Virus record (IMG/VR): IMGVR_UViG_3300028586_000376
Coordinates: 1-42,059 of that record
DNA length: 42,059 nt
Direction: 5' to 3' (one strand)
DNA from: a virus
Taxonomy: Duplodnaviria > Caudoviricetes
Shown here: positions 9,201 through 35,219 of the stretch, in pieces
Layout of the letters: every line of letters starts with the position of its first letter
Numbering within the stretch: position 1 is the stretch's first letter
Program-made: the position numbers and the translations under genes
Notes under the pieces: model-generated
Database searches by the model: none
What the model saw: only the letters and a program-made list of their open reading frames with translations
Told to the model about the DNA's origin: nothing

Positions 9201-9205
9201 GCTGT

Positions 9206-14101: not shown

Positions 14102-14107
14102 TAAATA
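14102..14107 (+). promoter_or_regulatory. TAAATA motif before terL (leaderless spacing)
   Basis: TAAATA-TGCG-ATG. Confidence 0.7.
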
Positions 14108-14111
14108 TGCG

Positions 14112-15510: not shown

Positions 15511-15536
15511 TAAATACCTCATAATCTAGTGAGGTA
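15511..15536 (+). promoter_or_regulatory. TAAATA plus RBS-occluding hairpin (portal)
   Basis: TACCTCA 15515-15521 pairs with TGAGGTA 15530-15536. Confidence 0.7.
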
Positions 15537-15541
15537 GCAGT

Positions 15542-16924
15542 GTGGGAATTAACGAACCATCGGAGTTTTATAGCGAGAACGTAGGTCGCTGGACCACGAA
15601 CCGGGATGTTATCGCCGGATCGAACGCGGTTCGCAAAAAGACGATCACCTATCTGCCGCTGGCCTTTCCAGACCAAGACCTCGTCACCCAGTACCCAGCC
15701 TATCAAAAGGCCGTCAGCTTTTATCCAGCAGCTAACCGCACCTGCGACGGCATTCTAGGGCTGATGATGCGCCGTGACCCGGTTGCGGAACTCCCAGACG
15801 CGCTCAAAGACATCAAGGCGGTCATTACCAGCCATGGCGACAGCTTGGAAACGCTGACCCGTCGCGTCTGTAAAGAGGTGCTAACCACCAACTATTGCGG
15901 TTTGGTGGCCGATTACAGCACGGTGAGCGCATCAAGCAAAGGCGCGGCAAAGGACGGAGCCGAACGAGCATTCCTCAATTTCTACCCTGCTGAGAGCATT
16001 CTCGAATGTACCCCCGGCCCGGTCGGTAAGCGTCAGCTACCTATTCGTGTTCGCCTACTCGAAAATGGCGGTCAGACGGTCCGCCTCATGGAGTTGGTTG
16101 ACGGCTTAGTCGAAGTTAAGGTCTATCACCGCAACGACGGTAAGTGGCCTGACGAGAGCAGCCCTAATGAGGTTCATCTACCAAAGGCACGAGGCCAGCG
16201 TCTTACGGAAATTCCATTTGACCTTATGACGGTCGCGGACGACTATTATCCATATGAGGCACCGCTTGATAACGTCGTAGCCCTCAATCTGGACCACTAC
16301 ATCGCGCAATCGATGCTGACCAAGCAAATACTGTTCAATCTGTCGCCAATGATTTTTGTCAGTGGCATCGAGAAGTCCGAAACTGTCATCAAGTGGGTTC
16401 CGGGCCGTATCTACAGCTTGGAGAATGCGGAAAGCAAAGTATTCCAGGTAAGCACTCCTAGTGACTCGTCGTTGGCAAACGAAAAGATGATCGCAGCGCT
16501 TGAAGACAAAATCGCAGTTTGCGCCAACCGCATTCTCGCCCGTCAGAAGGCAGTTGCCGAAGCTGCTGAGACTGAGGCGGTTCGACAGGGCGCTGAAAAC
16601 AGCGTTCTGGCCATGACGGCAAACGCGATCAGTGAGCGGTTTGAGCGCAGTCTCAAGCGCGCCGCCAATTATACTGACGAGGATGTGGAAATCGCGTTCC
16701 AGATTAACACTGACTACCTGCCAGTGAATATCAGCTCTCAGGAAATCACCGCCATGCTCGGCCTCTATGAAGCCAAGTTGATGAGTCGTGAAAGCGCGTT
16801 CTACAAGCTGCGCGAAGGCGGCATGTTTGACGAAACGCACAAGTGGGATGCTGAACGGCAGCGTATTGATGCCGACCCCGCCGTTGCCAGCCCCATCAAG
16901 CAGATTCCACCCGCAGCCGTCTGA
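15542..16924 (+). CDS. Portal protein (DUF4055-type)
   Basis: Follows terL, 460 aa, YLP...Y..AVSFY..ANRT and PLDNVVALNLDHY motifs. Confidence 0.85.
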   Translation: MGINEPSEFYSENVGRWTTNRDVIAGSNAVRKKTITYLPLAFPDQDLVTQYPAYQKAVSFYPAANRTCDGILGLMMRRDPVAELPDALKDIKAVITSHGDSLETLTRRVCKEVLTTNYCGLVADYSTVSASSKGAAKDGAERAFLNFYPAESILECTPGPVGKRQLPIRVRLLENGGQTVRLMELVDGLVEVKVYHRNDGKWPDESSPNEVHLPKARGQRLTEIPFDLMTVADDYYPYEAPLDNVVALNLDHYIAQSMLTKQILFNLSPMIFVSGIEKSETVIKWVPGRIYSLENAESKVFQVSTPSDSSLANEKMIAALEDKIAVCANRILARQKAVAEAAETEAVRQGAENSVLAMTANAISERFERSLKRAANYTDEDVEIAFQINTDYLPVNISSQEITAMLGLYEAKLMSRESAFYKLREGGMFDETHKWDAERQRIDADPAVASPIKQIPPAAV

Positions 16925-16930
16925 ATACAG

Positions 16931-16998
16931 TCCTCTCCGCTAAATAATTCCGGAGGCCAGCAAGGCTCCTGACTTACCGGCCAGCTAGGCGGAGAGGA
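16931..16998 (+). promoter_or_regulatory. TAAATA (16941) within RBS-occluding hairpin (scaffold)
   Basis: TCCTCTCCGC 16931-16940 pairs with GCGGAGAGGA 16989-16998. Confidence 0.75.
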
Positions 16999-17004
16999 TA
17001 CCAA

Positions 17005-17640
17005 ATGACTAAAACTGTAGAACAGCTACAGGCTGAAATCGAATCGGCCTTGGCGAGTATCAAAAAGCTCGAAGGTCTGAACGACACTTTGAAGCTGGAA
17101 AATAAGACATTTTCCAGCAAGGTAGCTGAGGCGCTGTCCGAGAAGGAAGCTGCTCAGGAAAAGGCCGACCGCGAAGCCGGTAACATCGAAGCCCTAGAGC
17201 GTCGCCTTACCACCAAATTCCAGAACGAAATGAACGCTATTACCAAGGAGCGCGACACTCTCGCGAACGACCTCCGTACGGTTCGCGTCGATAACGAAAT
17301 CAAGAGTGCGCTGACAAGCAACAAGGTGATGGCTGAACTATCGGAGGGCGCAGAAGCGCTACTGCTCCGCAAGGTCCAGTACGAAGACGGAGTCGCGACA
17401 ATCGACGGCAAGAGCATTCAGGATGCCGCCAAGGCGCTCTTCAATAGCAAGGCTGGCGCTTACTACGTGGCTGGCCCTGATAGCTCTGGCAGCGGAAGCA
17501 CAGGCGCAACATCCGCGAAGCCAGCATCTCGTCCATTCAATGAAACTGAATACTCGATTCAGCGAAAGACTGATCCAGTTGGCGCAGATGCGTGGGCTAA
17601 AAACACAAACAACGATTGGATCATTCCACCAGCGCAGTAA
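17005..17640 (+). CDS. Capsid scaffolding protein
   Basis: Coiled-coil N-half and GSGSTG linker; lies between portal and capsid genes. Confidence 0.75.
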   Translation: MTKTVEQLQAEIESALASIKKLEGLNDTLKLENKTFSSKVAEALSEKEAAQEKADREAGNIEALERRLTTKFQNEMNAITKERDTLANDLRTVRVDNEIKSALTSNKVMAELSEGAEALLLRKVQYEDGVATIDGKSIQDAAKALFNSKAGAYYVAGPDSSGSGSTGATSAKPASRPFNETEYSIQRKTDPVGADAWAKNTNNDWIIPPAQ

Positions 17641-17653
17641 TCAACTGAAAACA

Positions 17654-17726
17654 TGCCTCCAGGGTCTCGGGAATAAATACTTCCGGACAGCCAGTTTTGT
17701 CGGGCTCGTCATAAACTCTGGAGGTA
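17654..17726 (+). promoter_or_regulatory. TAAATA (17674) within RBS-occluding hairpin (major capsid)
   Basis: TGCCTCCAGGGT 17654-17665 pairs with ACTCTGGAGGTA 17715-17726 (two G-U pairs). Confidence 0.75.
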
Positions 17727-17732
17727 TTGATT

Positions 17733-18746
17733 ATGGCGACCCCCCGCCTGGAAAACGCATTTGATCCCGTTACATACACCCGCATCGTCGAAAAGGCTGT
17801 TATGGCCAAGTCGGCTTTGTTTAATTCCACCGCAATCGCTCGGTCGGCTGAATTCGATGACCTCGCACGTAGCGCAGGTACTTCGGTTATCATGCCCTAC
17901 ATCGATGAACTCGACGGCACGGCAGAAGTCGGATCGCGTGACGCGTCCATCCGTGGCGAAGTTCATGCTCTCGCGATGGGCGACGTAAAGGCCCAGAAGG
18001 ATTACCTCAGCCACAGCTGGGGCGTTAGCAAGCTGGACGCGCAGTTGGCTGGCGTTGAGAACGTCCTTCGTACCGACGCAGAACGCACCGCTGGCTTCTG
18101 GGTACGCAACTTCGACCGCCTTCTGCTCAACAAGCTGACCGGCGTTATCGAGAACAACATCGCCAACGACGGCGGCGACATGGTCAAGGACATCAGCAAG
18201 GACACCACCGGTGCCGCTGGTGCTACCAACAAGGCCAGCGCAGAAGCCATTATCGACACCGTTCTTACGATGGGCGATAGCTTCGATGAACTCGGCCTGT
18301 GGGTTTTCCCAACTCAGGTTTATGGCACGCTCCTAAAGCTGGACGCTGCTATGTTTGTTCAGCCTTCGCAGCTTCTGCCATTCCGCACCTACCGTGGCGT
18401 TCCATGCGTCGTCACTGACGGCGTTGCGCCAAAGCAGGGCACCAACCAGAAGATCTTCACCTCGTTCGCACTGGGCGCTGGTTCGGTTCTGTTTGGTTCG
18501 GCAAACGGCCTTGGTGGTGAAAACGTCATCGTCAACGACGAGCACGCCGCTAAGAACATGGGCGCTAAGGACCTCATCACCCGCCAGAATGGTCTAATCA
18601 TGACCATCCAGGGTCACACGTCCAAGGCTCCAATCGTTGGCGCGAACGCTGGCCCAGAAGTCGACGCTTACGCAAACGCCTCTTCGTGGGACCGCGTTTA
18701 CGACCGCAAGTTCGTTCGTATCGCAGCACTTCGCAGCAACGGCTAA
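17733..18746 (+). CDS. Major capsid protein
   Basis: 337 aa, strong GGAGG SD, biased codon use, ends WDRVYDRKFVRIAALRSNG, followed by a terminator. Confidence 0.85.
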   Translation: MATPRLENAFDPVTYTRIVEKAVMAKSALFNSTAIARSAEFDDLARSAGTSVIMPYIDELDGTAEVGSRDASIRGEVHALAMGDVKAQKDYLSHSWGVSKLDAQLAGVENVLRTDAERTAGFWVRNFDRLLLNKLTGVIENNIANDGGDMVKDISKDTTGAAGATNKASAEAIIDTVLTMGDSFDELGLWVFPTQVYGTLLKLDAAMFVQPSQLLPFRTYRGVPCVVTDGVAPKQGTNQKIFTSFALGAGSVLFGSANGLGGENVIVNDEHAAKNMGAKDLITRQNGLIMTIQGHTSKAPIVGANAGPEVDAYANASSWDRVYDRKFVRIAALRSNG

Positions 18747-18762
18747 TCGAGTAGGTTACAAA

Positions 18763-18790
18763 GGAGCCCCGGCGGTAACGTCGGGGCTTC
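18763..18790 (+). terminator. Terminator-like hairpin after the capsid gene
   Basis: GGAGCCCCGGCG-GTAA-CGTCGGGGCTTC. Confidence 0.7.
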
Positions 18791-18802
18791 GTTGTGACTG
18801 AC

Positions 18803-18808
18803 TAAATA
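18803..18808 (+). promoter_or_regulatory. TAAATA motif before the adaptor gene (leaderless spacing)
   Basis: TAAATA-TCGAT-ATG directly after the capsid terminator. Confidence 0.7.
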
Positions 18809-18813
18809 TCGAT

Positions 18814-19203
18814 ATGAACATCGAAACAGCAGACGCATTTCATCTGGTACGCGACAACGTCGATTGGGCTGGCACGAACACCGAGAAGTCGGCTGCTATC
18901 TTGCGGGCTCAGGACTATATTGCCGCCTACTATACATTGAAGCCGGATATTGACCCCAACGAACCGCTTCTGGTGCGCGCAACCTGCTTGCTGGCATTGG
19001 AGTTTTTGAACGGTGCTAATAAGCTAAAAGCCGAACGGGCAGTTATCAAAAGCAAGATCGCCGTCGAAGGCGTTGTGCTTGAGGAATTTGAGTACGCCGA
19101 AGGCTCACCTGATGCTGACCTCTACCCCTTTGTAACCGCCACCCTGCGTCCATTGCTTTCTAGCCAATCTGGCGGCTTTGGCTATATTCAGTTTGTACGC
19201 TAA
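18814..19203 (+). CDS. Head-tail adaptor (DnaT-like family)
   Basis: ADAFH..R...W.....K.AAILRAQDYI...ATCLLAL pattern and position after the capsid gene. Confidence 0.7.
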   Translation: MNIETADAFHLVRDNVDWAGTNTEKSAAILRAQDYIAAYYTLKPDIDPNEPLLVRATCLLALEFLNGANKLKAERAVIKSKIAVEGVVLEEFEYAEGSPDADLYPFVTATLRPLLSSQSGGFGYIQFVR

Positions 19204-19550
19204 TGGAGGCGCTGTACGCACGCGCTCGCCAGAGCGTTAAAGACAAGATCGCCAAGTATGGTGGCACTGCCGTCATAACTCGCACAATCGAGGGCGGGTA
19301 TGACGACGAGGGCAACCTCCTGCCGGTTGTCACGACGAGCAAGAAAATCCGAGCCATCTATCGCGACGGCTCATTCTTCAACGCCGGTTCGTACCTCGCT
19401 GGCAAGGCCAGCTTGCTGCTGGACTTCACATACGCGCCATCGCCCCAGGATCGAGTTTCCATGGGTGGCACCGATTGGACCGTAGATAGCGTCATCGCTG
19501 TAAAACCCGACGGCGTCACGGTCATCAACTACACTGTGGTGTTGGAATAA
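19203..19550 (+). CDS. Head closure / head-tail joining protein
   Basis: IAKYG...GGYDDEG...P.PQDRV...VKPDG; translationally coupled. Confidence 0.65.
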   Translation: MEALYARARQSVKDKIAKYGGTAVITRTIEGGYDDEGNLLPVVTTSKKIRAIYRDGSFFNAGSYLAGKASLLLDFTYAPSPQDRVSMGGTDWTVDSVIAVKPDGVTVINYTVVLE

Positions 19551-19680
19551 TGGCCTCCGGCGTCTCGAACCTCGGCGGTGTCGTGAAGAGCCTTGCGGCA
19601 GCAAAACGCAAAGCGCTGGCCGACGCACAGAAGGTGGTCCGCAATACAGCGAACGGCATCCTTACCGGCGTCGTTGAGGG
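19550..19680 (+). pseudogene. Truncated HK97 gp10-like tail-completion gene
   Basis: Helical N-terminus ends at ...ILTGVVEG and runs out of frame into tape-measure DNA. Confidence 0.55.
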
Positions 19681-22600
19681 CAGGCTCAGGCAGACGTGTC
19701 ACGCATCAGCGCCGTCACTCGAAGTGAGCTGACCAGCACTGCCGTTCTCTATGGCAAGATGGCCGCCAGCGGTAAGAACCTGAATGCCAGTCAGGCACAG
19801 GTCGCACGCGCTACCGAAACTGTCACCAAGTCCTTGAAAGTCAGCGATGCGTCTGCCGGTGAAACAGCTTCCACGGTCCTCCAGCTTGGGCAGGCGCTAT
19901 CGAGCGGCAAGCTGAACGGCGACGAATTCCGCTCCCTTGCTGAGAACGCGCCGCGCTTGATGAAGTTGATGGCCGACAGCATGGGCGTGCCAATCGGTGC
20001 GCTGAAAAAGATGGCCAGTGAGGGCAAGCTGACCAGCGAAAAGCTATTCCGCGCTTTCACGGACCCCAAGTATTTTGCGGCACTCGACGCCGAGGCCAAG
20101 CAGATCCCCGCCACCTTTGGTGACGCATTCACGGCCATTGAGAACGTGGCAACGCGCACCTTTGGCGCGTTCGATAGCGGCGGCGGCTTCAGTCAGGCAC
20201 TCTATAATTTCGCCAATCAGGGCACCGAGAACATGAACAGCATCACCAAGCGCGCAGCAGACGCGGGTGGTGAAATCCGCGATGCGTTCGCGGGTCTGGG
20301 CGATGCTTTCCAGCCGCTGCTCAACGGAGCCAACGGCGTCTTTGATGCTCTGGGTATCCGCATCGGCACTGTGAAAGAGCAGATTAGCGGGTTGCTCGGC
20401 ATCATGGACAACATCGCCAACGCCCCAATCAAGCTACAGAACTGGGCCAACGATGTTGATCGCAGCATCCGTCCCGAGTGGGCGCAGGCAGGTATTCCGA
20501 AGAACCAGCCGCTTCAGAACATGAAGGGCGATTTTAACGCCGGGTTTGAAAAGAGCCGTCGTGATCGCGCGCTAGACAAGCTGATTGCCAACACCCGCAT
20601 TGTGACTGGCGACAGCAGCTTCACCGGCAAGGGTATGACCCCCAAGGCGATCTTCGATAAGTTCTGGCAAGCGATGCCTGCGTATAAGGCTCGTCAGGGC
20701 GGGACCGGTCAGCTTCGTGCGGCTCCCGGCACGTCCACCACGACGAGTGGCGGCAGTGGTAGCGGGCGCAGCCGTCGTGATGTCGATGACATTATGAACA
20801 GCATCGGTGCCCGCGTTACCAGCGGCTACCGCACCTACGAGCATAACAAGGAAGTTGGCGGACAGCCCAACAGCCGCCACCTGACTGGCAACGCCCGTGA
20901 CATTGCGAAGACCAAGGGCATGTCGCTCGGCAAGATCGTCAGCACACTTCGCGAGCAGGGCTATGATGTCGTGGAAAAGCTGGACGAGGGCGATCACTTC
21001 CACGTCGCCTGGAAGGGCAAGGGCGACAAGTCCAAGTCGGAAAGCGAGCGAGCGGCAGTTTCCGCGCAACGTGAAGCTGAGAATCTAGCCGAGCGTCGTC
21101 AAAAGCAGGAAGCTGAATTGTGGTCCACAATGGATAACCAGCTCGCGCTTGCCCGCTTGATGCCAGCCGAGGCCGAGAAGCTGAACGCAGAGCAGGAACT
21201 GACCCAAATCCGCAGTGCCGAAATCACCAAGCAGGACAAGGAGCGCATCGGCGTGCTCATGGATCAGACCCGTGCCGCCAAGCTGCTCACGGAGGTAATC
21301 GCCGCCAACGATAACGGCGCACGCGAACTGGACTTCCAGAAGCGCAAGCTAGGTATGACCGACAAGGAATCCGCAATGGCGGAAGCCGCGTGGGAGTTTG
21401 AAAGCAAGGCCCTCGCTGACAAGGTCGACACCAGCAATGCGCTTTATCAGATCACCCTGGCGACGATCAAAGCCCGTGCTGGTGAGACGTTTGAAATCGA
21501 GAAGCAGAACCGGATGCTCAAGGACCGGGAGAGCTTGCTCAGCGAGTATAGCCCCCGTGAAGCTGACAACCAGCGCCTCGACCAGATTAACGCTGACCGC
21601 AATCGCCTGACGCTTCTACGTAGCAAGCCGGTGGCCGATGGCGGCATCACGGAAGAGCAGTACCGCCGCGCCCTCGATGGTGTGGAGAGGGCCAGCGTCG
21701 AAATCGCAACCCGCTGGGAACGTGAATTTGGTGGCAAAATCGACCAGCTTGGCGAGCAGCTAGGCGGCGTCTTCGGTTCGGCAGTCGGCAAATTCGGCAA
21801 GCTGATTAGCGGTCTGGCTGATGCCGCCGCTGGCAAGTTCAGCGGCCTCGGCCCTCTTGGCAGCGTTATTGACCTGCTGGGCACCAAGAGTGATGGCACG
21901 GCGAATGCTCTGGGTAAGGCAGCAGCTGACGCCAGCAAAAAGAGCCTCGATCAGCTACTTGGCCGGAACGGCGAGACCAGCGCGTTCAAGAATCCACTCA
22001 AGTCGCTGAGCAGCGGCTTCGACGGCTTCAAGACCGACCTCAAGGGCATCTTCGGCAAGAACGGCGATTTCACGAAGGGCATGGGTAGCGTGCTGGGTAA
22101 GGCCGCTGGCGGCATGAAGATGGGCGAGACCGCCGATCAGGTAATGAAAGCCATTGGCCTCAAGTCCAGCAAGCTGGGTAGCCAAATTGGCGGTGCCATC
22201 GGTGGAGCGGTCGCGGGTCCAATCGGCAGCGTAGTTGGTGGTATTGCGGGTGGCCTGTTCGGTGGCCTGTTCAAGAAGTCCAAGCAGGGAAGCGCAGGCC
22301 TCCAGATGGACAGCTTTGGCAACCTCGTTGGCATGGACGCCACCGGTCGCGGCGCTGCGGAGAAGGCGGCGGCACAGGCACTAGCCAGCAGCGTTGCCAG
22401 TGGCCTGAACGGAATCGCATCGGCACTTGGCGGTACCCTGACCGGTACCGGCGGCATCAGCGTTGGTTATCGTCCGGGCCATAAGGCCGGTGCGTATCGC
22501 GTTGATCCGACGGGCCGTGGCGCGGTCAAGGGCGGCAGCGTCATGGCCTTTGAAAACGAAGCTGATGCTATCGCGGCAGCGATCAAGCTGGCCTTGAAGT

Positions 22601-23349
22601 CGGGCATCCTCGATGGCGTATCGGATTTCAGCAAGCGACTGTTGAGCGCGACTGAGAACCTGGATTCTGCTATTGCTTTGGCTACCACCTATGAGAATAT
22701 CCTCAAGGAACTGGCAGCTATCGATGACCCCATTGGCGCTCCGCTAAAGCAACTCAACGAACAGTTCGAGAAGCTCAACAAGAGCATGACGGCCAACGGC
22801 GCAACCGCTGGCGAACTCGCGAATGTGGATCGCTATTACATGGTCCAGCGTCAGAAGATGCTTGAGGATCAGCTTTCCAGCATCAAGAGCCTACAGGATA
22901 AATTGAACGGCGCGGAAAGCGGCGTATCAAGCAAGATCCGTCTGGATAAGCAGCTAAAGGAATTCCGCGCTTACGAGGATACGATTGCCAAGGGTGGCAG
23001 CGTCGATCCAACCAAGTTCGCTGAACTGGGATCGTCCATCTTTGATATCGCCCGCGATCTCTATGGCACGTCCGGTCCTCTTTTCCAGAACATCAGGAAC
23101 GAACTGCTCAACGCCAGCGATGCGATGACCAAGAATGTCGAGTCCATGTACGGCACCAGCAGCGACAGCACGACGGTTGTTCAGGCAGTCGATACGCAGA
23201 CGCAGCTTATCGCGCAGGGCATCAAAGAAACTCAAAAGGGCAACGCAATTCAGGAGCGCATCGCGGCGGCATTGGAAGCTGCCAACGATGTTGAAGGTCT
23301 CATGCGCAATGCCAAGGCAGTCAACGGCTACCAGTACGGAACTGTGTAA
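19678..23349 (+). CDS. Tape measure protein, 5'-truncated, with internal peptidase M15-like domain
   Basis: QLGQALSSGKLNGDEFRSLAENAPRL...GALKKMASEGKLT tape-measure motif at the very start; TSGYR...NSRHLTGNARD...DHFHV; Gly-rich membrane-like repeats. Confidence 0.85.
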   Translation, partial: GQAQADVSRISAVTRSELTSTAVLYGKMAASGKNLNASQAQVARATETVTKSLKVSDASAGETASTVLQLGQALSSGKLNGDEFRSLAENAPRLMKLMADSMGVPIGALKKMASEGKLTSEKLFRAFTDPKYFAALDAEAKQIPATFGDAFTAIENVATRTFGAFDSGGGFSQALYNFANQGTENMNSITKRAADAGGEIRDAFAGLGDAFQPLLNGANGVFDALGIRIGTVKEQISGLLGIMDNIANAPIKLQNWANDVDRSIRPEWAQAGIPKNQPLQNMKGDFNAGFEKSRRDRALDKLIANTRIVTGDSSFTGKGMTPKAIFDKFWQAMPAYKARQGGTGQLRAAPGTSTTTSGGSGSGRSRRDVDDIMNSIGARVTSGYRTYEHNKEVGGQPNSRHLTGNARDIAKTKGMSLGKIVSTLREQGYDVVEKLDEGDHFHVAWKGKGDKSKSESERAAVSAQREAENLAERRQKQEAELWSTMDNQLALARLMPAEAEKLNAEQELTQIRSAEITKQDKERIGVLMDQTRAAKLLTEVIAANDNGARELDFQKRKLGMTDKESAMAEAAWEFESKALADKVDTSNALYQITLATIKARAGETFEIEKQNRMLKDRESLLSEYSPREADNQRLDQINADRNRLTLLRSKPVADGGITEEQYRRALDGVERASVEIATRWEREFGGKIDQLGEQLGGVFGSAVGKFGKLISGLADAAAGKFSGLGPLGSVIDLLGTKSDGTANALGKAAADASKKSLDQLLGRNGETSAFKNPLKSLSSGFDGFKTDLKGIFGKNGDFTKGMGSVLGKAAGGMKMGETADQVMKAIGLKSSKLGSQIGGAIGGAVAGPIGSVVGGIAGGLFGGLFKKSKQGSAGLQMDSFGNLVGMDATGRGAAEKAAAQALASSVASGLNGIASALGGTLTGTGGISVGYRPGHKAGAYRVDPTGRGAVKGGSVMAFENEADAIAAAIKLALKSGILDGVSDFSKRLLSATENLDSAIALATTYENILKELAAIDDPIGAPLKQLNEQFEKLNKSMTANGATAGELANVDRYYMVQRQKMLEDQLSSIKSLQDKLNGAESGVSSKIRLDKQLKEFRAYEDTIAKGGSVDPTKFAELGSSIFDIARDLYGTSGPLFQNIRNELLNASDAMTKNVESMYGTSSDSTTVVQAVDTQTQLIAQGIKETQKGNAIQERIAAALEAANDVEGLMRNAKAVNGYQYGTV

Positions 23350-23367
23350 ATACTCGTGGAGGTAGCC
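23326..23367 (+). promoter_or_regulatory. TAAATA (23347) within hairpin over the RBS
   Basis: GGCTACC 23326-23332 pairs with GGTAGCC 23361-23367. Confidence 0.65.
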
Positions 23368-23368
23368 A

Positions 23369-23740
23369 ATGGCCATTGATAACAATCGCGGTTCGTTCGT
23401 TAAACAGGAATACCGCTACGAAACGGATGACGCGCCAGAGGTGCTGGAAAGGCAGCCAAACGCGCGGACTATCAAGCTGGAAACTAATCTCGACAGCTTG
23501 TCCGCAAAGGCGCTGGCTGTCGAACTGTTGACCGAACACAAACACGTGGCGCAGGCTTACCGCGTTACTGTAGCAGGCGTGGACGTCTGTGAGGACGACA
23601 AGTGGATTGACAGTCCACCGACTTTCTCATGCGTGTTTCCAGACTGGCCGATTGCCCAAACTGATGTGCTGCGCACCGTCACGACAACGACGGATTACAA
23701 TCTCTTCACTACGACAATCACCGCAAAGGGGCCGCAATGA
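23369..23740 (+). CDS. Hypothetical tail-region protein
   Basis: GGAGG SD; position after the tape measure gene. Confidence 0.7.
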   Translation: MAIDNNRGSFVKQEYRYETDDAPEVLERQPNARTIKLETNLDSLSAKALAVELLTEHKHVAQAYRVTVAGVDVCEDDKWIDSPPTFSCVFPDWPIAQTDVLRTVTTTTDYNLFTTTITAKGPQ

Positions 23741-24519: not shown

Positions 24520-24581
24520 TAATCGGCTTGTATAGCCAGCGGCCCCCGTTAGTCTGGCCCCTCATGCCGAGGGGCCGGTAA

Positions 24582-25322
24582 ATCGATACTAAGACCATCT
24601 TCGTCAGCTACTCGCACGCAGACCGCGAGTTCGTTGATCGCCTTTTATCGGCGCTGAGGCCGATCGTGGGGGAGCGTGTCGACTTCGTTCTCGACACGCA
24701 GGCAATTCACCCGGGCGATAACCTAACCGCCTCGATTGGCAACCTAATCGAACATAGCGATGGCATGTTGGCCATCCTGCCAAAGCGTGGCAATAGCAGT
24801 TGGTTTTCAGCAGAGATTGCCATTGCGCTGGCCAAGGCTAGTAAAGAGTCTAGTTTTAGCCTGATCCCCATCGTAATTCATCCTGCCGACATACCATACA
24901 TGATGCGAGACAGGCTATACGTTAGCTTCTCTGATCCCAATAGCTTTTCTCCTAACGTCAGGATGATCGCAGAGGCCCTTCTTTCTGATAGGTCTCAACC
25001 CGATTTTAACCCTGCCGACGTTGACGCTATCCGAAAGGCGTCGATAGATGCGAAGCGCGCTCTTCTTGAAATAAACAAGGCGCAGCATGAGCGTCAAAGA
25101 GTCAGCGAGTATCGAGTTGTTGGGCTTGCTGTTGTAGCCTCAGTAATTTCAGTTATCGCTACTGCTGTGCCGTGGATATTTTCAGCGAAGTTGACCTACA
25201 CTCAACTCGGCTCATCGCTGATCGGGTTTCTAATGCTCTTTGTCGGGTTTGCGTTCGGCCGCCTTAGCGCCCATCGCAAATCTCATAGCAAATCCTCCTC
25301 AGCCGGGTCAGAACAACAGTGA
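24582..25322 (+). CDS. TIR-domain protein with two C-terminal TM helices; no canonical start before the TIR first strand
   Basis: In-frame upstream extension IDTKTIFVSYSHADREFVDRL; SSWFSAEI (catalytic Glu position), LIPIV; hydrophobic C-terminus. Confidence 0.8.
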   Translation: MDTKTIFVSYSHADREFVDRLLSALRPIVGERVDFVLDTQAIHPGDNLTASIGNLIEHSDGMLAILPKRGNSSWFSAEIAIALAKASKESSFSLIPIVIHPADIPYMMRDRLYVSFSDPNSFSPNVRMIAEALLSDRSQPDFNPADVDAIRKASIDAKRALLEINKAQHERQRVSEYRVVGLAVVASVISVIATAVPWIFSAKLTYTQLGSSLIGFLMLFVGFAFGRLSAHRKSHSKSSSAGSEQQ

Positions 25323-25657
25323 GCGGCGATCTCAATGCTATCACCTTTGCTCGCGCAGAGGAGCAGCTTAGGCAAGAACGAGAGGCCTTTGATCAATTGA
25401 AATCTAAGGACATTATGTGGTTCTACCTTCGATTAGTCGTCGGCAGTACCTCTATCGTTCTTTTAATTGCCGTAATAGCCATTTGCTGCTATATATTCTT
25501 GAACAATAAATACTTTCCTGAATTCGTCATTAAGGCTGCCAGTGTCGCACTTTTTGGGGACGTTCTCGGTCTCATAGTTTTGGTGTGGAAGGTCATTTTG
25601 AACACTGGGGATACCAAGGTCCTCGCACCAGTTACGAAGGCAATAGCAGAGGCTTAA
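25319..25657 (+). CDS. Small two-TM membrane protein
   Basis: Two hydrophobic helices; GTGA overlap with the TIR gene; AT-rich. Confidence 0.75.
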   Translation: MSGDLNAITFARAEEQLRQEREAFDQLKSKDIMWFYLRLVVGSTSIVLLIAVIAICCYIFLNNKYFPEFVIKAASVALFGDVLGLIVLVWKVILNTGDTKVLAPVTKAIAEA

Positions 25658-25664
25658 CTACGGC

Positions 25665-25704
25665 CTCTGCCCGCTAAATATCGGAAACGATATGAGGTGC
25701 GGAG
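25665..25704 (+). promoter_or_regulatory. TAAATA (25675) within hairpin before the tail-tip gene
   Basis: CTCTGC/GCGGAG outer stem and ATATCG-GAAA-CGATAT inner stem. Confidence 0.65.
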
Positions 25705-28506
25705 TTGCGACAGGTCTTTCTAGCAGAAATTACAGCTTACGATCCACGCGAGGATAAACTCGTAACTCTCCGCATGTGCTCCGGTGGTCAGGGTCATGTA
25801 GCATTTCCTGAGTTTCCCGACGAGCAGTACATCCCCTGTATCGCATCCGCGCCTACCCAGACCCGCACGGTCACAGACAATGGCATTCCCGGTCAGATCA
25901 GTATTGATTACGGCGCTATTTCGATCCGTTTTACCCGTGATCACCGAAACACTCATTGGCGTCGATACGACTTCGACGGTTATCCCTGCCGCCTTCTCCA
26001 TGGCGAGTATGGCGCACCCTACAGCAGCTACAAACAGATCCCGGCTGGGCGCGTTGGCTCCCTTGATGTCCAGTCCGCAGGCCTTGGCGAACTGCCCCTT
26101 CTTGGTCCCGACGCCGAACTCAAGAAGGAAGTCCTGACTGTCACCTACGCAGGAACCGGCGGCGCACAGGGCCAGGAAGGCGACAAGGGCGTTCTCAAGC
26201 CTTTCGCCATCGGCCGGTGCGAGAACATCGAAGCCTTGCTCATCGATCCCGTAAATCTCATCTGGCAGTATCACGGCTACGGTCCAACGCAGGACGTAGA
26301 AGCCGTCTATGAGAACGCGCTGACGCTCGGTGGACCCAAGCTGATCGCTGAGAGCTACGAACAGTTGGCCAGTTACACGGCTGACGAACTACCGCCTGGC
26401 ACATGGGCAAAGGCCCCGGCTGTTGGCATGTACCGCTTTGGCGGCGAGCCGATCGGCAAGGTCACGGCTGATGTCATCGGCGCAGTGGATAACGGCGTTG
26501 CCCCCCGCAGCGTTGGTGCCATCTGCGCCTATATGCTGCGTCAATTTGGCGGTGTTCCTGCCTCCCTAATCGACATGGCATCAGCGGCTAAAATGGACCG
26601 CGATTTTCCTCACGAGTGGGGCCAGTACATCGATGCGCGGGCTAAGCCCGAGGACGCTGACGAAAACGAACCCAGCTACAGCGTTGGTGATTTCGTTCGC
26701 GAGGCCACGAGCCACGTAGCGGGCTACCTATTCGCAGACGCGTTGGGAGCGTGGCACTTTGGCCGCAACGTCTCGAGCAAGACGCCTATCGTTTTGCGCT
26801 CTGGCCGCAGCAGCAAGCCAGCCGTTATTGATATTGCTTCCCCGGCTACCACGACGCGCGTTCACAAGGTCCGCGTTGGTGGTCGTCGTTGCTTTTCCGT
26901 CCACAGCGATAGCGAAATCAGCAGTGCGTTGAAGGACGCTGTTGAGGGAACCCTAGAGGTTATCAACGGGGTCAAGCAGGACGTAAAAGAGGCCCAGGAC
27001 AACGCAAATGCGATCCGCCAGCAGCTTCCCGATCTTGTCGGCCCTCTGCTCAAGAAGCCCATCAACGAACTATCGGCGCTTCACCTCAAATATGGCGCGG
27101 CGCAGTTCAACACCACCCTCGCCCTCCATAACCAGAATCTCGTCGCTATCCGCGCTTTGGGCACCCGCATGGATGAGGATGGCAACGCGGTTGCCGAAGA
27201 CCTGCTCCAGCTAACCACAAGGGTCGATAAAGCGGAATCGGGCCTCATCGAAATCAATAGGACCGTTGCGGGCCTGGACTTCGCGACCGCCGAGGAGATT
27301 GACCAGAAAGTCGCCAACTTCGGCAAGGGCGTGACTGCTTGGCAGGTGGAAGAGCAGCGAGTTCGCAGCACCAAAGATACCGCGCTCGCCGAAGACATCA
27401 ACGCCATGGGCACGAGGATCACAAAGGAAGTTGGTGACATCAAAACCACCTATGACGGACAGTTTACAGATGTCAGGCGCCTCATTGTCGACGCCGCAGA
27501 CGGCACGATCAAAGCGGAAGATCTAGACCGCCTTGACCTTAAGCTGACCAAGGCCATTGGCGATGAGATTACCACGCGCGAGGTGGCAATCAGCAATGCC
27601 CGTGAGGCATGGGTCGAAGGCGACCGCGTAGTCGCGCAGACCGTCAACGAACTAGGCTCTCGCGTTACCCGCGAAGTCGATGGCGTGAAGACCACCACCG
27701 AAGCGGCAATCCGTGACGGCTTGAAAACCGTTGTGGATCAAGCTGGTGCTGCCACAGAGGCAGTCCGTGTCCTATCGAGCAGCGTCAACGGGCTGACCGG
27801 CCCCAACGGCGTCATTCAGGTCATTCAGGAAACTGAGGCGCGTAACGATGGCGCTCGTGCTCAGGAAACACGCAACCTCCAGAGCCGTCTAGACAACTTC
27901 AATGGCGCATCACTGGAACAGCAGTTCAGCACCTATGCCAACAAGGTCGATGGGGTTGGCGCTCAATACGTCTTGAAGGTCCAGACTGACAATAATGGCG
28001 TCCGCTCCATCGCGGGTATGGGCTTGGCGATTGACAATAATGTATCCGCGATTGCTTTTACCGCTGACAGCTTCCGCCTAACCACACCGGGCTCATTCCC
28101 ACAGCAGGTATTCTACGCAGACGCCGATGGCGTTTACATGCCTAATGTCACGGTGGACAAGCTCAAGGCTGGCGCGATTGATTTCGAGTTTATCAGCAAG
28201 CAGTCAATCCGCGATCCCAACGCTGGATATCAGGTCATGCCCGGTGGCCTGATTTTCATGTGGGGGCGTTTCCGTCAGGTCATTCGCAACGAAACCACCT
28301 TTTCGATCTCCTTCCCCATCGCATTCCCAAATCAGTGTCTCAGCTTCAACGCAACACCGTACCTCATCTACTTCAATAACGAACGTGACTTGTGGATTCA
28401 GAACATCGGACAGACCAGTCGGTTTGGCGCAACCGTTGCTACCCAGGCCGCTCGCCGTGACGATCAATATCTGGATGGCTTCGACTGGTTCGCGGTCGGG
28501 TTCTAA
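25705..28506 (+). CDS. Tail tip / host-specificity protein
   Basis: Tail-hub-like N-terminus, coiled-coil middle, AQYVLKVQ...IAGMGL...AFTADSF (DUF1983-like), GYQVMPGGLIFMWG...FPIAFPN (gp53-like) C-terminus. Confidence 0.8.
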   Translation: MRQVFLAEITAYDPREDKLVTLRMCSGGQGHVAFPEFPDEQYIPCIASAPTQTRTVTDNGIPGQISIDYGAISIRFTRDHRNTHWRRYDFDGYPCRLLHGEYGAPYSSYKQIPAGRVGSLDVQSAGLGELPLLGPDAELKKEVLTVTYAGTGGAQGQEGDKGVLKPFAIGRCENIEALLIDPVNLIWQYHGYGPTQDVEAVYENALTLGGPKLIAESYEQLASYTADELPPGTWAKAPAVGMYRFGGEPIGKVTADVIGAVDNGVAPRSVGAICAYMLRQFGGVPASLIDMASAAKMDRDFPHEWGQYIDARAKPEDADENEPSYSVGDFVREATSHVAGYLFADALGAWHFGRNVSSKTPIVLRSGRSSKPAVIDIASPATTTRVHKVRVGGRRCFSVHSDSEISSALKDAVEGTLEVINGVKQDVKEAQDNANAIRQQLPDLVGPLLKKPINELSALHLKYGAAQFNTTLALHNQNLVAIRALGTRMDEDGNAVAEDLLQLTTRVDKAESGLIEINRTVAGLDFATAEEIDQKVANFGKGVTAWQVEEQRVRSTKDTALAEDINAMGTRITKEVGDIKTTYDGQFTDVRRLIVDAADGTIKAEDLDRLDLKLTKAIGDEITTREVAISNAREAWVEGDRVVAQTVNELGSRVTREVDGVKTTTEAAIRDGLKTVVDQAGAATEAVRVLSSSVNGLTGPNGVIQVIQETEARNDGARAQETRNLQSRLDNFNGASLEQQFSTYANKVDGVGAQYVLKVQTDNNGVRSIAGMGLAIDNNVSAIAFTADSFRLTTPGSFPQQVFYADADGVYMPNVTVDKLKAGAIDFEFISKQSIRDPNAGYQVMPGGLIFMWGRFRQVIRNETTFSISFPIAFPNQCLSFNATPYLIYFNNERDLWIQNIGQTSRFGATVATQAARRDDQYLDGFDWFAVGF

Positions 28507-28518
28507 GGCAAACGAGCA

Positions 28519-28552
28519 CTCCCGCTAAATATCGGAAACGAATTAGCGGGAG
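28519..28552 (+). promoter_or_regulatory. TAAATA (28526) within RBS-occluding hairpin (tail fibre)
   Basis: CTCCCGCTAA 28519-28528 pairs with TTAGCGGGAG 28543-28552. Confidence 0.75.
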
Positions 28553-28562
28553 AGCCGACCAA

Positions 28563-31500
28563 ATGGCATTTGAATATGAGGACAGCGGCTCAGTAAATCT
28601 GGTAGGCGGCTCCACTGAAGTTACAGGCAATAATACTAACTGGGTTGTCAATTATGATGGCATCGCGCTCAACATCGCTGGTCTCAGCTATCCCGTGCGC
28701 AGCATTGACGCACGGAACCGACTGACCCTCAAAGAGCCTTACACCGGCCCCAGCGTCAGCAATGTCAGCTACACCTTCCTGCCATTGGCCAACGAGGTAT
28801 ATTCGCTGTCCGGTCAGGTCGCGACAGTGCTTGAGCGAGCTGGCGAATTGATTGACGCCAAGGTCGGCCCGGCTGGTCCAGCAGGTCAGCAAGGCCCCGC
28901 AGGTCCCAGCGGCAAGAACGGCGACGCGGGCTTCGGCGCAATTACCAATTTCACTGAATACACCGGCCAGCCAGCAGGCGGCAGCGGCGTCTATATGATC
29001 GTCCCTGTTGCTCAGGGCGAACCAGGCATCACGCTCACTCAGAGCGCGAAGGTCATTCTCCCCCGTGACAAAGCAAACGCAGGCATTGGCTTGTGGATCA
29101 ACGCCACGACGAGCGGCTACGCGATCACCCTCGGACTCAGCAACGCACCTGAACCCCAGCCAGACGTTCCGACTGAACCCGTCGATTTGTCCGGTAGCAG
29201 CACCATCTATGGCGCTCCCGGCACGATCATTCCTCTTGGTATCACTCTGGGTGGCAGCACGGCCAGCTTTACGGTCAACCGTCCCGAAGAACTGCCCATC
29301 ATGATCGAGCGCAAGGTCGATATCGTCACCCCTACCAGCAGCCAGTGGACGCTTGGCGGTTCGGGCGCTCCCTATGTGGTGAGCGGCAACGCCGTCAGCA
29401 GCACCGCAGGCTTGAACAAGAACGGCACAGGCTTTGATTTCCGCAACGGTCACGTCGTCGTCAACCAGGGCAGCTACCTGTTCAGCCAGGCACTGGCCTT
29501 GGATTTCAAGACGAGCAGCAATGACATCGTAACCCAGACTCCACCGTCGATGCGTCTCAGCTTCAAGGGTGTCGTTCCTGCCGGTGCCATGGAGCCAATT
29601 CTCGCAAACGTGCTCGACTACAGCACGGGCGGCATGACGCTGAAAACCTACTGGCAGGGCAGCACCCTACAGCTACAGCTTCATCGCAACGGCTCGACCG
29701 AAAATATCATCAGCCCCGAGGCTCCCTCGCGCATTCTCGGCACCAATCAGCTTTACGAAGCAGAGTGGAACGACAACCCCGGCGGCGTCGGCGGTACGGT
29801 TACGTTCTACGTGGACGGACAGCAGATTGGTTCGCCGGTCGCCACGACTAGCAAGCCCCGTGTCGCGGCAGCGGCTTCGTTGGAAATCAACGCATCGGTG
29901 GGCAACACCTCGCAGAGCATCAACAACCTGGAAATTGAGTATGTGAAGGTCGGCGCAGGCAAGCCCGGTATCCGCAGTGACTACGTGACGGTCAGCGATG
30001 GCCCGATCAGCGCGGCCGATCTTGAGTCCCTTGTAGTTGATGCGCGAGCACTCACGGGCAACCAGACTGCGCGACACCTGACCTACACGGCCAACGGCTC
30101 GCAGATGTATGACATCGAAATTGTCGTCGGTGAAATGGTGCTGCCAGCCGGTCGCGCATACAAAGCGGTTCTTGAGGATTGGTCGAGCGGATCGGCTGTT
30201 GAGCATCCCAACCACCTCGTCATGACCAAGGCCAGCGCGCAGAATTGTAAGTTCGAGGACGCTCCGCTGTATGGTTCGCAAGCCACCTGGACCGAGGTTT
30301 TGCCGCAGGGTCCTGTACCCAATATCAACGGCATCAACTACTATTGCGAGGGCATTCGCATGGGTACGTATGTCCAGTTCCAGTTTGGCTACGACTGGGA
30401 CACCAACACCATGCCGAGCGCGCCCTTTGGCGATCCATCGGGCAAGGACAGCTACATGGTCCCCCATAAGTGGAAGATCATCGACAACGCCGGTACGCTG
30501 CTGGCGCGCATCGAGAAGCCAAACGGCGAGCCGCTGAACAGCAACAGCTCTCCCGCTACGTGGCAGGGCACTTACGATGGCCGCGGCGTGGCACAGATCA
30601 CGACGGCCAACCCTTGGTATCCACATGGTACCGTACGCAGCGGCGTCATCTGGCGCAGTCACGATCCCGTGGCTTACACCCAGCAGCAGGTCTGGAACAC
30701 GGTTCCGGTTTACGACTTCCGTGTTCCGTTCGCGTCCAAGACCGGCTTTTCGGTTAACGGCGGCGACATGCGTATCTTTGGCGACGGTCAGGCTAACGGC
30801 TTCGCGAACTACCGCGTTATGTCGTGGGAGCAGACCACGTACCTGGACATTCAGGCGCAGGCACAGGCCACCAAGGACCCCTGGAAGGGCGGTGTCTACA
30901 ACCCCGATGGCGCAGTACCCAACGCAGGCGTCTGGCTAAAATACACTCCATTCAACCAGATGGGCCGATCGCCGATTACCGGTCCTGGCGGTACGCGCGA
31001 TGATCGTCAGATCATGCCGGAAATGGTTGCCCTATATGCCCGCGATGTGAACGCAAAGCGTCCGCACGACGAGCGATCCATGAAGCAAATCGCGCTCGAC
31101 TACCTCACCGGCTATGTCAGCGATCCATATCACGCCTTTGAGAACGGCAGGAATAAGCCGCTCTACAAGGGCAACATGCGCCGCAATATCACGATGCGTA
31201 ACCACTACTATGGACCGGGACAGGCAGCTACCCCGGCAAGCCAAGCCTTCTACGTTCAGGGTGGTCGCCCTTACGAATGGTCCAGCGGTAGCAGCCCACT
31301 TCGAGTGAAGGTGCCCTACGGTGGCGTCAATCCAACGAAGCCCATCTTCGGTACCAACCAGATTGACGAAGCACACGGCCATCAGCTTCCCCATTGGGGC
31401 TCGCTGCTATTCCAGACGCCTGAATTTGCGTTCTTGGGCCACAGGTTCTTCGATCAGGTCAAGCTCTACGACAACGTGATTCTAGGCAAGAGCGACAGCA

Positions 31501-32336
31501 ACAAGGAATTCGCTGAGCGTGGCGCAGCTTGGAAATTCCTCCAGACTGCCATGGCGTGGAAGACCGCTTCGAATAACTCGGATCGCCTCTACAGCCGTGC
31601 CGATGTCATGGACTTCATCACCTTTGATTTTGAGGTATTCTACGACACTTGGTATGCGACCGATCCCGGCTTCCTAAACCCGCCAACCAACATCATGACT
31701 GGTGGCCAGTATGATCCGACCAAGGCGGTGTTCGCAGGCGCAGCGCGTTTCGGCCCATGTAAAGCTGATGGTGAAGTCGACGGACTCTTCGCTCACGACT
31801 TCTACGCTGGCTACTGGCTGAGCGCGCTTCACGTAACAGAACGTCTTGGTTTCAATGACGCTCTTCGCGATGCCTCTCCCAAGGTCAAGGCAGTCATCGA
31901 CTGGCTACTGGCGTGCCACCGGAAGCGCATTGTTGGCCGTACCAATGACGGCGCGCTTATCAACGGCACCGGCTCTGACTATCTCACCCAATACTGGTCC
32001 CCCGCCGAGATCTACGCGGCTAAGGGTGATGTGACGAAGCTACACCAGAATATGGCAGCAGTCGCAGTCGCACGTCCGGCACCAAGCTGGGACACCTACA
32101 AGCCGGGCAACACCCCTGAACTGCGCGATGGTCAGGCAATGGACCAGCTTCTCGCCGGTCCCGCACTACTCAAGGATATGGGTATGAGCGGAGCCGACTT
32201 GGACAAGGCAGTGACGACCGCCGAGCAGCGTTTCCAGGAGAAGCTGACAAGCGAGACTGCCAAGGGAGCGGGACAGGCAGGTGTCGACTGGTTCAGATAT
32301 CACCAAGCAACCAACAACAGGCCCGTGAGGCCCTAA
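28563..32336 (+). CDS. Large tail fibre/spike protein
   Basis: GSV....GSTEVTGNNTNW fibre N-terminus, short collagen repeat, lectin-like VTFYVDGQQIG region, large aromatic-rich C-terminal domain. Confidence 0.75.
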   Translation: MAFEYEDSGSVNLVGGSTEVTGNNTNWVVNYDGIALNIAGLSYPVRSIDARNRLTLKEPYTGPSVSNVSYTFLPLANEVYSLSGQVATVLERAGELIDAKVGPAGPAGQQGPAGPSGKNGDAGFGAITNFTEYTGQPAGGSGVYMIVPVAQGEPGITLTQSAKVILPRDKANAGIGLWINATTSGYAITLGLSNAPEPQPDVPTEPVDLSGSSTIYGAPGTIIPLGITLGGSTASFTVNRPEELPIMIERKVDIVTPTSSQWTLGGSGAPYVVSGNAVSSTAGLNKNGTGFDFRNGHVVVNQGSYLFSQALALDFKTSSNDIVTQTPPSMRLSFKGVVPAGAMEPILANVLDYSTGGMTLKTYWQGSTLQLQLHRNGSTENIISPEAPSRILGTNQLYEAEWNDNPGGVGGTVTFYVDGQQIGSPVATTSKPRVAAAASLEINASVGNTSQSINNLEIEYVKVGAGKPGIRSDYVTVSDGPISAADLESLVVDARALTGNQTARHLTYTANGSQMYDIEIVVGEMVLPAGRAYKAVLEDWSSGSAVEHPNHLVMTKASAQNCKFEDAPLYGSQATWTEVLPQGPVPNINGINYYCEGIRMGTYVQFQFGYDWDTNTMPSAPFGDPSGKDSYMVPHKWKIIDNAGTLLARIEKPNGEPLNSNSSPATWQGTYDGRGVAQITTANPWYPHGTVRSGVIWRSHDPVAYTQQQVWNTVPVYDFRVPFASKTGFSVNGGDMRIFGDGQANGFANYRVMSWEQTTYLDIQAQAQATKDPWKGGVYNPDGAVPNAGVWLKYTPFNQMGRSPITGPGGTRDDRQIMPEMVALYARDVNAKRPHDERSMKQIALDYLTGYVSDPYHAFENGRNKPLYKGNMRRNITMRNHYYGPGQAATPASQAFYVQGGRPYEWSSGSSPLRVKVPYGGVNPTKPIFGTNQIDEAHGHQLPHWGSLLFQTPEFAFLGHRFFDQVKLYDNVILGKSDSNKEFAERGAAWKFLQTAMAWKTASNNSDRLYSRADVMDFITFDFEVFYDTWYATDPGFLNPPTNIMTGGQYDPTKAVFAGAARFGPCKADGEVDGLFAHDFYAGYWLSALHVTERLGFNDALRDASPKVKAVIDWLLACHRKRIVGRTNDGALINGTGSDYLTQYWSPAEIYAAKGDVTKLHQNMAAVAVARPAPSWDTYKPGNTPELRDGQAMDQLLAGPALLKDMGMSGADLDKAVTTAEQRFQEKLTSETAKGAGQAGVDWFRYHQATNNRPVRP

Positions 32337-32351
32337 GAGCCGGTATCCAAC

Positions 32352-32382
32352 TAAATATCCGTGATAACTGCGAGGTCACGGA
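32352..32382 (+). promoter_or_regulatory. TAAATA plus hairpin abutting the start codon
   Basis: TCCGTGA 32358-32364 pairs with TCACGGA 32376-32382; ATG at 32383. Confidence 0.65.
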
Positions 32383-35211: not shown

Positions 35212-35214
35212 ATA
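35209..35214 (+). promoter_or_regulatory. TAAATA motif before the holin-like gene (leaderless spacing)
   Basis: TAAATA-CGGTA-GTG. Confidence 0.65.
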
Positions 35215-35219
35215 CGGTA

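Follow-up and report, generated by a model that had tools for sequence, protein, structure and literature searches.

The stretch of DNA analysed here (the window, 42,059 nt, the whole of IMG/VR virus record IMGVR_UViG_3300028586_000376) is filled by a single integrated phage-like element of about 41 kb, whose leadered virion genes lie behind a TAAATA box flanked by complementary RNA arms. Folding models of the window and of its relatives predict that these arms form a translational lock that is systematic, conserved and module-wide among the leadered virion genes. On these models, TAAATA is probably a promoter of the T4 late type, and the flanking hairpins would make translation depend on where the RNA starts. 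In read-through RNA coming from upstream, an arm complementary to the Shine–Dalgarno sequence (the anti-SD arm) would pair with the ribosome site and shut it, and in RNA begun 4–5 nt after the box this arm would be missing and the ribosome site open. Three layouts would serve this end: a direct lock, whose arm lies upstream of the box or within the 4–5 nt that follow it; a leaderless start without a Shine–Dalgarno (SD) sequence; and, where the capsid leader is long, a relay in which RNA that lacks four 5′ bases would form a shorter first hairpin, and the bases so freed would capture the anti-SD arm during transcription. The purpose would be to prevent virion proteins from being made in the lysogen, with no need for a repressor cascade. 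The boxes, their strand bias, the 4–5-nt spacing and the complementary arms confined upstream of the start point are seen directly in 16 records, and all RNA structures are predictions whose folding in vivo is presumed.

The seven leaders of the window with paired arms are as follows.

15511..15544, + strand: portal leader, with TAAATA at 15511-16, the 5′ arm at 15514/15-21, the 3′ arm with the SD at 15530-36 and the GTG at 15542.
16931..17007, + strand: scaffold leader, with the 5′ arm at 16931-42, TAAATA at 16941-46, the 3′ arm with the SD at 16987-98 and the ATG at 17005.
17637..17735, + strand: capsid leader, with the 5′ arm at 17653-65 (extension 17637-43), TAAATA at 17674-79, the 3′ arm with the SD at 17715-27 and the ATG at 17733.
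23326..23371, + strand: leader of gene 23369, with the 5′ arm at 23326-32 inside the end of the tape-measure coding region, TAAATA at 23347-52 and the 3′ arm with the SD at 23361-67.
25640..25707, + strand: tail-tip leader, with a competing hairpin at about 25646-70, TAAATA at 25675-80, an inner hairpin at 25678-93 and the TTG at 25705.
28519..28565, + strand: tail-fibre leader, with the 5′ arm at 28519-28, TAAATA at 28526-31, the 3′ arm with the SD at 28543-52 and the ATG at 28563.
32343..32396, + strand: leader of gene 32383, with an outer arm at 32343-51, TAAATA at 32352-57, an inner arm at 32358-64 and the 3′ arm from 32376-82 on over the start codon.

A first-pass annotation of the window had proposed arm pairs at these seven genes, and all seven (7/7) were found where it had placed them. 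Five stems consist of Watson–Crick pairs throughout (7 bp in the portal leader, 10 in the scaffold leader, 7 in that of gene 23369, 10 in the tail-fibre leader and 7 in that of gene 32383); the capsid stem of 12 bp includes two G-U pairs and the tail-tip stem of 6 bp includes one, and the capsid, tail-fibre and gene 32383 stems are longer than first described. Each leader has a TAAATA box 16–58 nt before its start codon. The claim that the hairpins bury the ribosome-binding site is matched by prediction for six of the seven leaders, in which the claimed pairs have a mean probability of 0.96–1.00 in the long RNA, but not for the tail-tip leader. The 3′ arm was said to cover or abut the SD or the start codon, and this extends to gene 32383, where the stem covers the spacer and the start codon, not the SD. 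The 5′ arms lie at −31 to +2 of the inferred start, and so upstream of it or across it, as had been proposed. When the upstream block was dinucleotide-shuffled 300 times and the cost of opening the initiation region compared, the stems surpassed shuffled leaders at p < 0.05 in five cases (portal, with its inferred start site at about 15521, 0.040; scaffold, 0.013; capsid, 0.003; gene 23369, 0.027; tail fibre, 0.003), but not in gene 32383 (0.053) or the tail tip (0.24). Five of the seven leaders also beat all seven blocks swapped within the window. The capsid SD is unpaired with a probability of 0.00 in the long RNA and 0.91 in the short RNA. An identical 21-nt stretch surrounds the box in the tail-tip leader (25671-25691) and the tail-fibre leader (28522-28542), and its inner tetraloop hairpin recurs in the 32383-type leaders of relatives.

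TAAATA occurs 18 times in the window against 5.5 expected, a count reached in 0 of 100 shuffles, and 16 of the 18 copies are on the + strand, which is the gene strand. In G001, a related host genome with 158 boxes, the 35-kb prophage accounts for 19 of them. The family studied comprises 17 records including the window, gathered by capsid and terminase searches; relatives at about 35% identity or less in capsid or terminase, which mostly show no box enrichment, were left out, as were G014 and G176. Of the 239 boxes of the family, 235 were scorable; a start codon comes immediately after 68 of them and an SD-led gene after 119, and the other 48 have neither. An ATG stands at a spacer of 4 or 5 nt in 58 of 227 boxes, and each of the other spacers from 0 to 12 has 1–7. 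A spacer of 4–5 nt is found in 63 of the 68 leaderless cases, and just 5 of 66 genes with a start codon at that spacer have an SD. Since the ATG clusters there, the start site was placed 4–5 nt after the box. T4 late promoters span −13 to −6 (PMC1524935), which gives a 5-nt gap. No conserved −35 element was found across 156 promoters, in which the base before the box is variable, mostly A or C (A 57, C 48, G 24, T 27), and a sigma-70 promoter scan returned 3 sites against 8.4 expected. As judged from sequence, TAAATA is thus likely to be a T4-late-type promoter of the −10-only kind, with a putative promoter function and start site.

The lock was tested across the family on 104 SD-led genes, each with a leader no longer than 110 nt and with at least one homologue elsewhere in the records, one near-duplicate record being dropped; nine of these leaders come from the window, and because the records are related the p-values overstate independence. 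On average, the initiation region opens at a cost of 12.5 kcal/mol when the leader has its own upstream DNA and of 6.5 kcal/mol when the RNA begins at the inferred start. Four kinds of control gave lower costs than the own block: blocks of other leadered promoters (8.1 kcal/mol), blocks of leaderless promoters (8.0), shuffles (8.1) and the orthologue's block (9.05). Own blocks cost more than the average swap in 89 of 104 leaders, with a mean excess above zero in 16/16 records and 11/11 gene clusters. The cost drops as the 5′ end is moved in and reaches a plateau at the fourth to fifth base after the box. In agreement with the proposed position of the 5′ arm, pairing with the ribosome site comes from bases at −26 to −9 and −2 to +5 relative to the end of the box, and is at most 0.11 from +6 on (69 leaders). 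Boxless flanking genes (68 draws) show a drop of 1.2 kcal/mol against 6.4 in 97 boxed leaders. Folds of single sequences give at least four pairs with bases before the start site in 12/14 portal, 7/7 tail-tube, 6/6 fibre, 6/6 32383-type, 9/16 capsid and 8/14 scaffold leaders. The pair types vary among the helices listed, and the arms change sequence yet stay upstream of the start site; together with the orthologue swaps, in which the own block wins in 71 of 95 cases, this indicates that structure is kept while sequence changes. RNAalifold recovered the stem in an alignment of seven tail-tube leaders. As to the covariation that the first-pass annotation had called for as a check, the single-sequence folds show varied pair types, and a consensus structure was obtained for the tail-tube alignment but not for the portal and fibre alignments. 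Its suggestion that the logic of T4 genes e, soc and I-TevI is used across much of the virion module is supported by these folding tests, which find it conserved in the relatives.

Some virion genes have no leader at all, namely those of the terminase small subunit (TerS), the terminase large subunit (TerL) and the head-tail adaptor, as has gene 35220. Their boxes are as follows.

9195..9208, + strand: TAAATA, 5 nt and ATG of the terminase small subunit, predicted leaderless; the same layout in 6/6 records of the cluster.
14102..14114, + strand: TAAATA, 4 nt and ATG of the terminase large subunit, predicted leaderless; the 4-nt layout in 8/8 records of the cluster.
18803..18816, + strand: TAAATA, 5 nt and ATG of the head-tail adaptor, predicted leaderless; leaderless in 11/14 cluster records.
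35209..35222, + strand: TAAATA, 5 nt and GTG of a small gene of no known family, predicted leaderless; the same layout in G406.

The form of the leader varies between records for four genes (portal, fibre, tail-tip and 23369), each of which is found both SD-led and leaderless, the orthologue of gene 23369 being leaderless in four other records. Because orthologues swap between the two forms, locked and leaderless leaders suggest one shared purpose, the tying of translation to a local start. The first-pass annotation had overlooked this leaderless class, as well as the relay in the capsid leaders of relatives and the lack of any factor able to read TAAATA among the genes found. In Caulobacter crescentus, initiation is reported to need low structure, and an SD to work only if it is accessible (bioRxiv 10.1101/2022.10.10.510831). 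By analogy, this rule supports the locks.

In the long capsid leaders of the relatives, hairpin 1 begins right after the box, and its bottom 3–4 pairs are lost when the RNA starts at the fifth base. The bases freed from hairpin 1 close a second helix that encloses the anti-SD arm. Nascent RNA was folded to 8 nt before the SD, a cut point of our own choice. The short RNA favours the outer pairs of this capturing helix over the long RNA by at least 0.3 in probability in 12 of the 13 long capsid leaders; the probability of the helix is typically 0.9–1.0 in the short RNA (range 0.52–1.00) and 0.0–0.25 in the long RNA, and since the short fold served to define the helix, it is the loss in the long RNA that is informative. 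The first pair of the capturing helix is C-G in 11 leaders and A-U in two, and the fourth is A-U, G-C or G-U. Such nascent folding resolves most of the capsid exceptions to the simple lock. A three-helix relay that senses the missing 4 nt is thus a kinetic prediction. The window, G001 and G002 have a direct upstream arm in place of the relay.

Several observations weigh against the reading of TAAATA as a late promoter coupled to a start-dependent lock. The base before the box is variable, whereas T4 gp55 pockets A-12 (PMC7892883). Fifteen of the 104 leaders do not exceed the swaps, and just 47 of the 104 beat all 20. At equilibrium, the SD is open in the short RNA in 53 of 103 leaders, and it is shut in the long RNA and open in the short RNA in only 40 of 103 (34 of 69 leaders of at most 60 nt, 6 of 34 longer ones), so that the comparison of long with TAAATA-initiated leaders, which the first-pass annotation had put forward as a check, favours its claim in mean opening cost but gives an equilibrium switch in a minority. 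Seven of 16 capsid leaders are shut at equilibrium in the short RNA, their SD stem lying wholly after the start site, and these 7/16 would depend on the kinetic relay with its chosen cut point; in the window, the capsid AUG is still paired in the short RNA. Seven leaders of about 100 nt before a tail gene show almost no effect. The tail-tip stem as first drawn has a probability of 0.00 in the long RNA, because its 5′ arm is taken by the competing hairpin at about 25646-25670, and what is found there is a weak lock in another register. The SD sites of genes 23737 and 32739 are open in the long RNA (5.0 and 7.0 kcal/mol); with these and the four leaderless genes, the claim that the whole module is untranslatable from read-through RNA is not supported. 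Open starts without an SD may leak on long RNA, as the C. crescentus study implies (bioRxiv 10.1101/2022.10.10.510831). No consensus structure emerged from RNAalifold on MAFFT alignments of the portal leaders (12 sequences) or the fibre leaders (6), since their arms slip out of register or change place. The strand test carries little weight, with 5 G-U against 0 A-C pairs in strict helices and 69 against 67 in a loose count.

The source of the read-through RNA and the silence of the lysogen bear on the purpose of the lock. The path from host radC, the insertion site, to the leaders is 15 kb long, with opposing genes and a strong hairpin at 13811-13836. Upstream boxes, the cassette with a TIR-domain gene and other cargo on the late strand are possible sources closer than radC. 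The claim of read-through from host transcription was thus overstated; upstream TAAATA promoters or cargo genes of the module are equally possible sources. The claim of silence without a repressor was likewise overstated: such silence is plausible and no cI was detected, but some members have MucR/Ros and HTH-IrrE genes. In the window, these are a MucR/Ros homologue at 6675-7205 (+), also present in G406, and a fusion or gene pair of helix-turn-helix (HTH) and IrrE domains at 5027-6613 (+), also present in G001; G335 has an HTH antitoxin, and the distribution of all three is patchy. MucR binds AT-rich DNA and could act on the boxes.

The least certain part of the proposal is what reads the box. 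A phrog_234 profile found gp55 in 0 of 10 records or genomes, the second search having had no positive control, and T4 and phiM12 gp55 queries against all open reading frames (ORFs) of the 17 records gave no homologue (best E 0.11 and 0.92). Neither a sigma factor nor cI turned up when 42 proteins of the window and 133 others were scanned with PHROG, PHROG and Pfam scans gave no candidate reader, and gp33 and gp45 were not seen in the profile scans. The main boxless candidate is gene 37946. Gene 39763 resembles a primase at best. PhiM12, a T4-superfamily phage of an alphaproteobacterium, has gp55, and in its first 50 kb TAAATA stands before gp23, gp22, gp19, gp18 and gp3 with a ratio of 16:1 on the gene strand; in Atu_ph07, a gp55 homologue is present and a box precedes the portal gene. 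For the primase zinc-finger and helicase-like proteins of the element, the 15 best matches listed are phages of 129–490 kb, led by or including Atu_ph07. By analogy with such phages, the reader is most likely a gp55-type late sigma factor of a co-infecting T4-superfamily or jumbo phage, and a borrowed sigma factor of this kind is likely; for dependence of the element on a helper, the analogy leaves the odds near even. We would propose only tentatively, with rather less than even confidence, that these are repressor-less, infection-triggered prophages whose programme is wired to a T4-superfamily or jumbo late sigma factor and whose lysogeny is sealed by RNA that senses its own 5′ end.

It is possible, though doubtful, that the element is autonomous, TAAATA being read by its own unrecognised factor or by host polymerase with an activator, so that the locks work with no helper. 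The element does have its own integrase, head, tail and lysis genes, as named by profile scans, and many of its genes are of no known family. No non-structural gene, however, is common to all of the records; gene 37946 is in 5 of 17 records, and its model (pLDDT 81) matches nothing in the PDB or BFVD and no sigma factor. The −10 pattern of sigma-70 promoters is TANNNT, which the box does not have, and it has no conserved −35 either. Replication-type genes too lie behind boxes.

Unlikely as an alternative to lysogen silence, and compatible with a start-dependent lock as such, is the explanation that the locks insulate nested late transcripts from one another in lytic growth and so set stoichiometry. 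The late strand has few terminator-like sites, so that late RNA from upstream would run through later leaders. In six of the seven window leaders, the 5′ arm begins 6–21 nt past the upstream stop codon, and in one it lies inside the upstream gene, a position within or near the reach of the terminating ribosome. Lytic phiM12, however, has many late boxes too, yet only about two of its eight tested leaders look locked; lysogen silence is favoured for this reason. The replacement of locks by leaderless starts between orthologues also speaks against insulation. The two phiM12 (L155) leaders that look locked are those of gp18 and gp3, with 11.7 and 10.0 kcal/mol in the long RNA against 5.0 and 3.0 in the short RNA.

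Very improbable is the action of the inverted repeats as DNA, in operators or cruciforms, or as terminators of antisense RNA. The reverse complement of the box would give a T-rich tail, the arms are in many cases perfect palindromes, folding of the long leaders is no better on one strand than on the other, and the portal hairpin scores as a terminator-like site of the minus strand. That score is reached in only 1/7 leaders, however, and the arm sequences differ by gene and by relative, so that there is no single operator sequence; the 3′ arm tracks the SD or the start codon, the arms span up to about 70 nt around other hairpins, and the logic of the relay, which includes G-U pairs, is of the RNA type. 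Accidental pairing in leaders rich in GC, or hairpins that stabilise the 5′ end and have no bearing on translation, may account for single leaders such as the tail tip, given that the opening cost rises by about 1.6 kcal/mol with whatever upstream sequence is added, that short helices occur in 198 of 520 swapped controls and that scaffold leaders frequently have a hairpin right at the inferred start, but this explanation is the most improbable of all and is contradicted for the family as a whole by the excess of 3.6–4.5 kcal/mol of own blocks over the four kinds of control and, as to stability, by the loss of an arm in the short RNA from most stems, which cannot then stabilise it.

The element is bounded at both ends, and its outline and other features on it are as follows.

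541..547, + strand: left attachment core, a 7-mer at the break in host radC, repeated at 41539.
41539..41545, + strand: right attachment core, the copy of the 7-mer at 541.
18755..18798, + strand: strong hairpin after the capsid gene (z = −8.2), likely a terminator.
19682..19702, + strand: site of an internal deletion of about 2.95 kb, placed by a near-identical contig of run X2 and the gene order of relatives.
24603..25657, + strand: TIR-domain gene and a small gene, cargo within the tail module just upstream of the tail-tip leader.
37099..37210, − strand: TAAATA and a structured 105-nt leader of a helicase-like gene, with no clear lock (9.4 against 7.3 kcal/mol).
39713..39765, + strand: TAAATA leader of a primase-like gene that is split here (39763/39964), with a shuffle p of 0.11.

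The flanks of the two 7-mers translate as the N- and C-terminal halves of RadC and match RadC Pfam models. Since the 7-mer at 541 and 41539 splits radC into these halves, both ends of the element are present. A serine recombinase gene begins at 619, and terminase, portal, scaffold, capsid, adaptor, closure, tape-measure, tail-tip, fibre and lysis genes were named by the profile scans. With virion genes of its own, the element was rejected as a classical satellite, and it is not a T4-like phage. The contig of run X2 has 2966 extra letters between 19682 and 19702, and at this position relatives have more tail genes, the start of the tape-measure gene and further TAAATA leaders; the window copy is therefore tail-deleted and would probably not make tailed particles. 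The nearest named relative sits in Sphingomonas sp. CFBP 13728, so that the host is likely a sphingomonad. Capsid identity to cultured phages is at most 31%.

A tyrosine recombinase at 3908-4432 (−) has 174 residues and consists of the catalytic domain only; it is conserved in 8 of 17 records, with 54–73% identity in seven relatives, and outranks most virion genes in conservation. An integron-like attC reading of the hairpins was rejected, since the hairpin is absent at leaderless boxes and the position of the arms follows that of the SD. The TIR gene shows no ATG start in its frame, and its cassette looks like defence cargo. The primase zinc-finger protein at 7598-8257 (+) and the helicase-like protein at 35678-37099 (−) have cultured matches that are all large phages. 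The gene at 39763-40506 (+) is a single ORF of about 250 residues in relatives and two ORFs in the window. The endolysin gene has a variant box at 39642-39653 (−), differing in one base, 5 nt before the ATG and without an SD. An ORF-less unit at 13631-13720 (+), behind TAAATA and upstream of a terminase gene, is conserved, with a 16-nt invariant core in 5/5 aligned records and a pyrimidine run resembling an anti-SD; it has no Rfam match and no stable fold, and is a candidate small RNA. A second similar ORF-less unit lies behind TAAATA in five relatives (L034:5881 (−), L059:14913 (−), L141:928 (+), L055:6680 (+) and L139:5807 (+)), and the ORF-less boxes of the window at 3262 (+) and 38822 (−) are unrelated to it.

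The mechanism is known from T4. In T4, hairpins with an embedded late promoter sequester the ribosome-binding site of e, soc, 49 and I-TevI, as they do in Aeh1 mobE and T4 segB, and in gene e the effect is reported to be 100-fold (PMC3014915). The predicted arrangement is the same in the family: the SD or AUG is paired in the long RNA, and the putative late promoter lies within the 5′ arm or behind it, which leaves late RNA without the arm. It differs in that T4, a lytic phage with its own gp55, locks a few genes, whereas the elements of the family are integrated, have no detectable late sigma factor and are predicted to lock most of their leadered virion genes; they also alternate locks with leaderless starts, and the relatives add the three-helix relay. 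The T4 late promoter is TATAAATA at −13 to −6, and variants with the same core are CTAAATA in Aeh1, NATAAATA in S-PM2 and ATAAATA in the jumbo phage CBB (PMC1524935, PMC2984593, PMC5259590, PMC7892883). The boxes of the family share with the late promoters of the T4 superfamily the TAAATA core, the lack of a −35, a distance of about 5 nt to the start and a position on the coding strand before virion genes; phiM12, like the family, has C or A before the core. Unlike those promoters, they occur in an element in which no gp55 was found and also precede replication-type genes and ORF-less units.

What is new is the module-wide use of the lock, its interchange with leaderless starts and the relay; the literature search, with most subscription papers outside it, returned no description of such an arrangement in a prophage. 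As modelled, it would be a real, conserved and module-wide variant of a known control with a predicted relay that senses the start site. If true, a temperate phage could do without a repressor cascade and still remain silent, by means of promoters unreadable to its host and leaders that are translatable only from them, and the capsid relay would be a compact, protein-free switch that reads the transcription start site. If the reader is the late sigma factor of a helper, large lytic phages would be parasitised in a novel manner, from which the host population might gain a defence. P4, PICIs and PLE are helper-dependent satellites that are integrated and have their programme switched on by an infecting phage, and the element would resemble them in that its programme too would be switched on in this way. 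In contrast to these satellites, it has terminase, portal, capsid and tail genes of its own and relatives with complete tail modules, and the item borrowed from the helper would be a late transcription factor.

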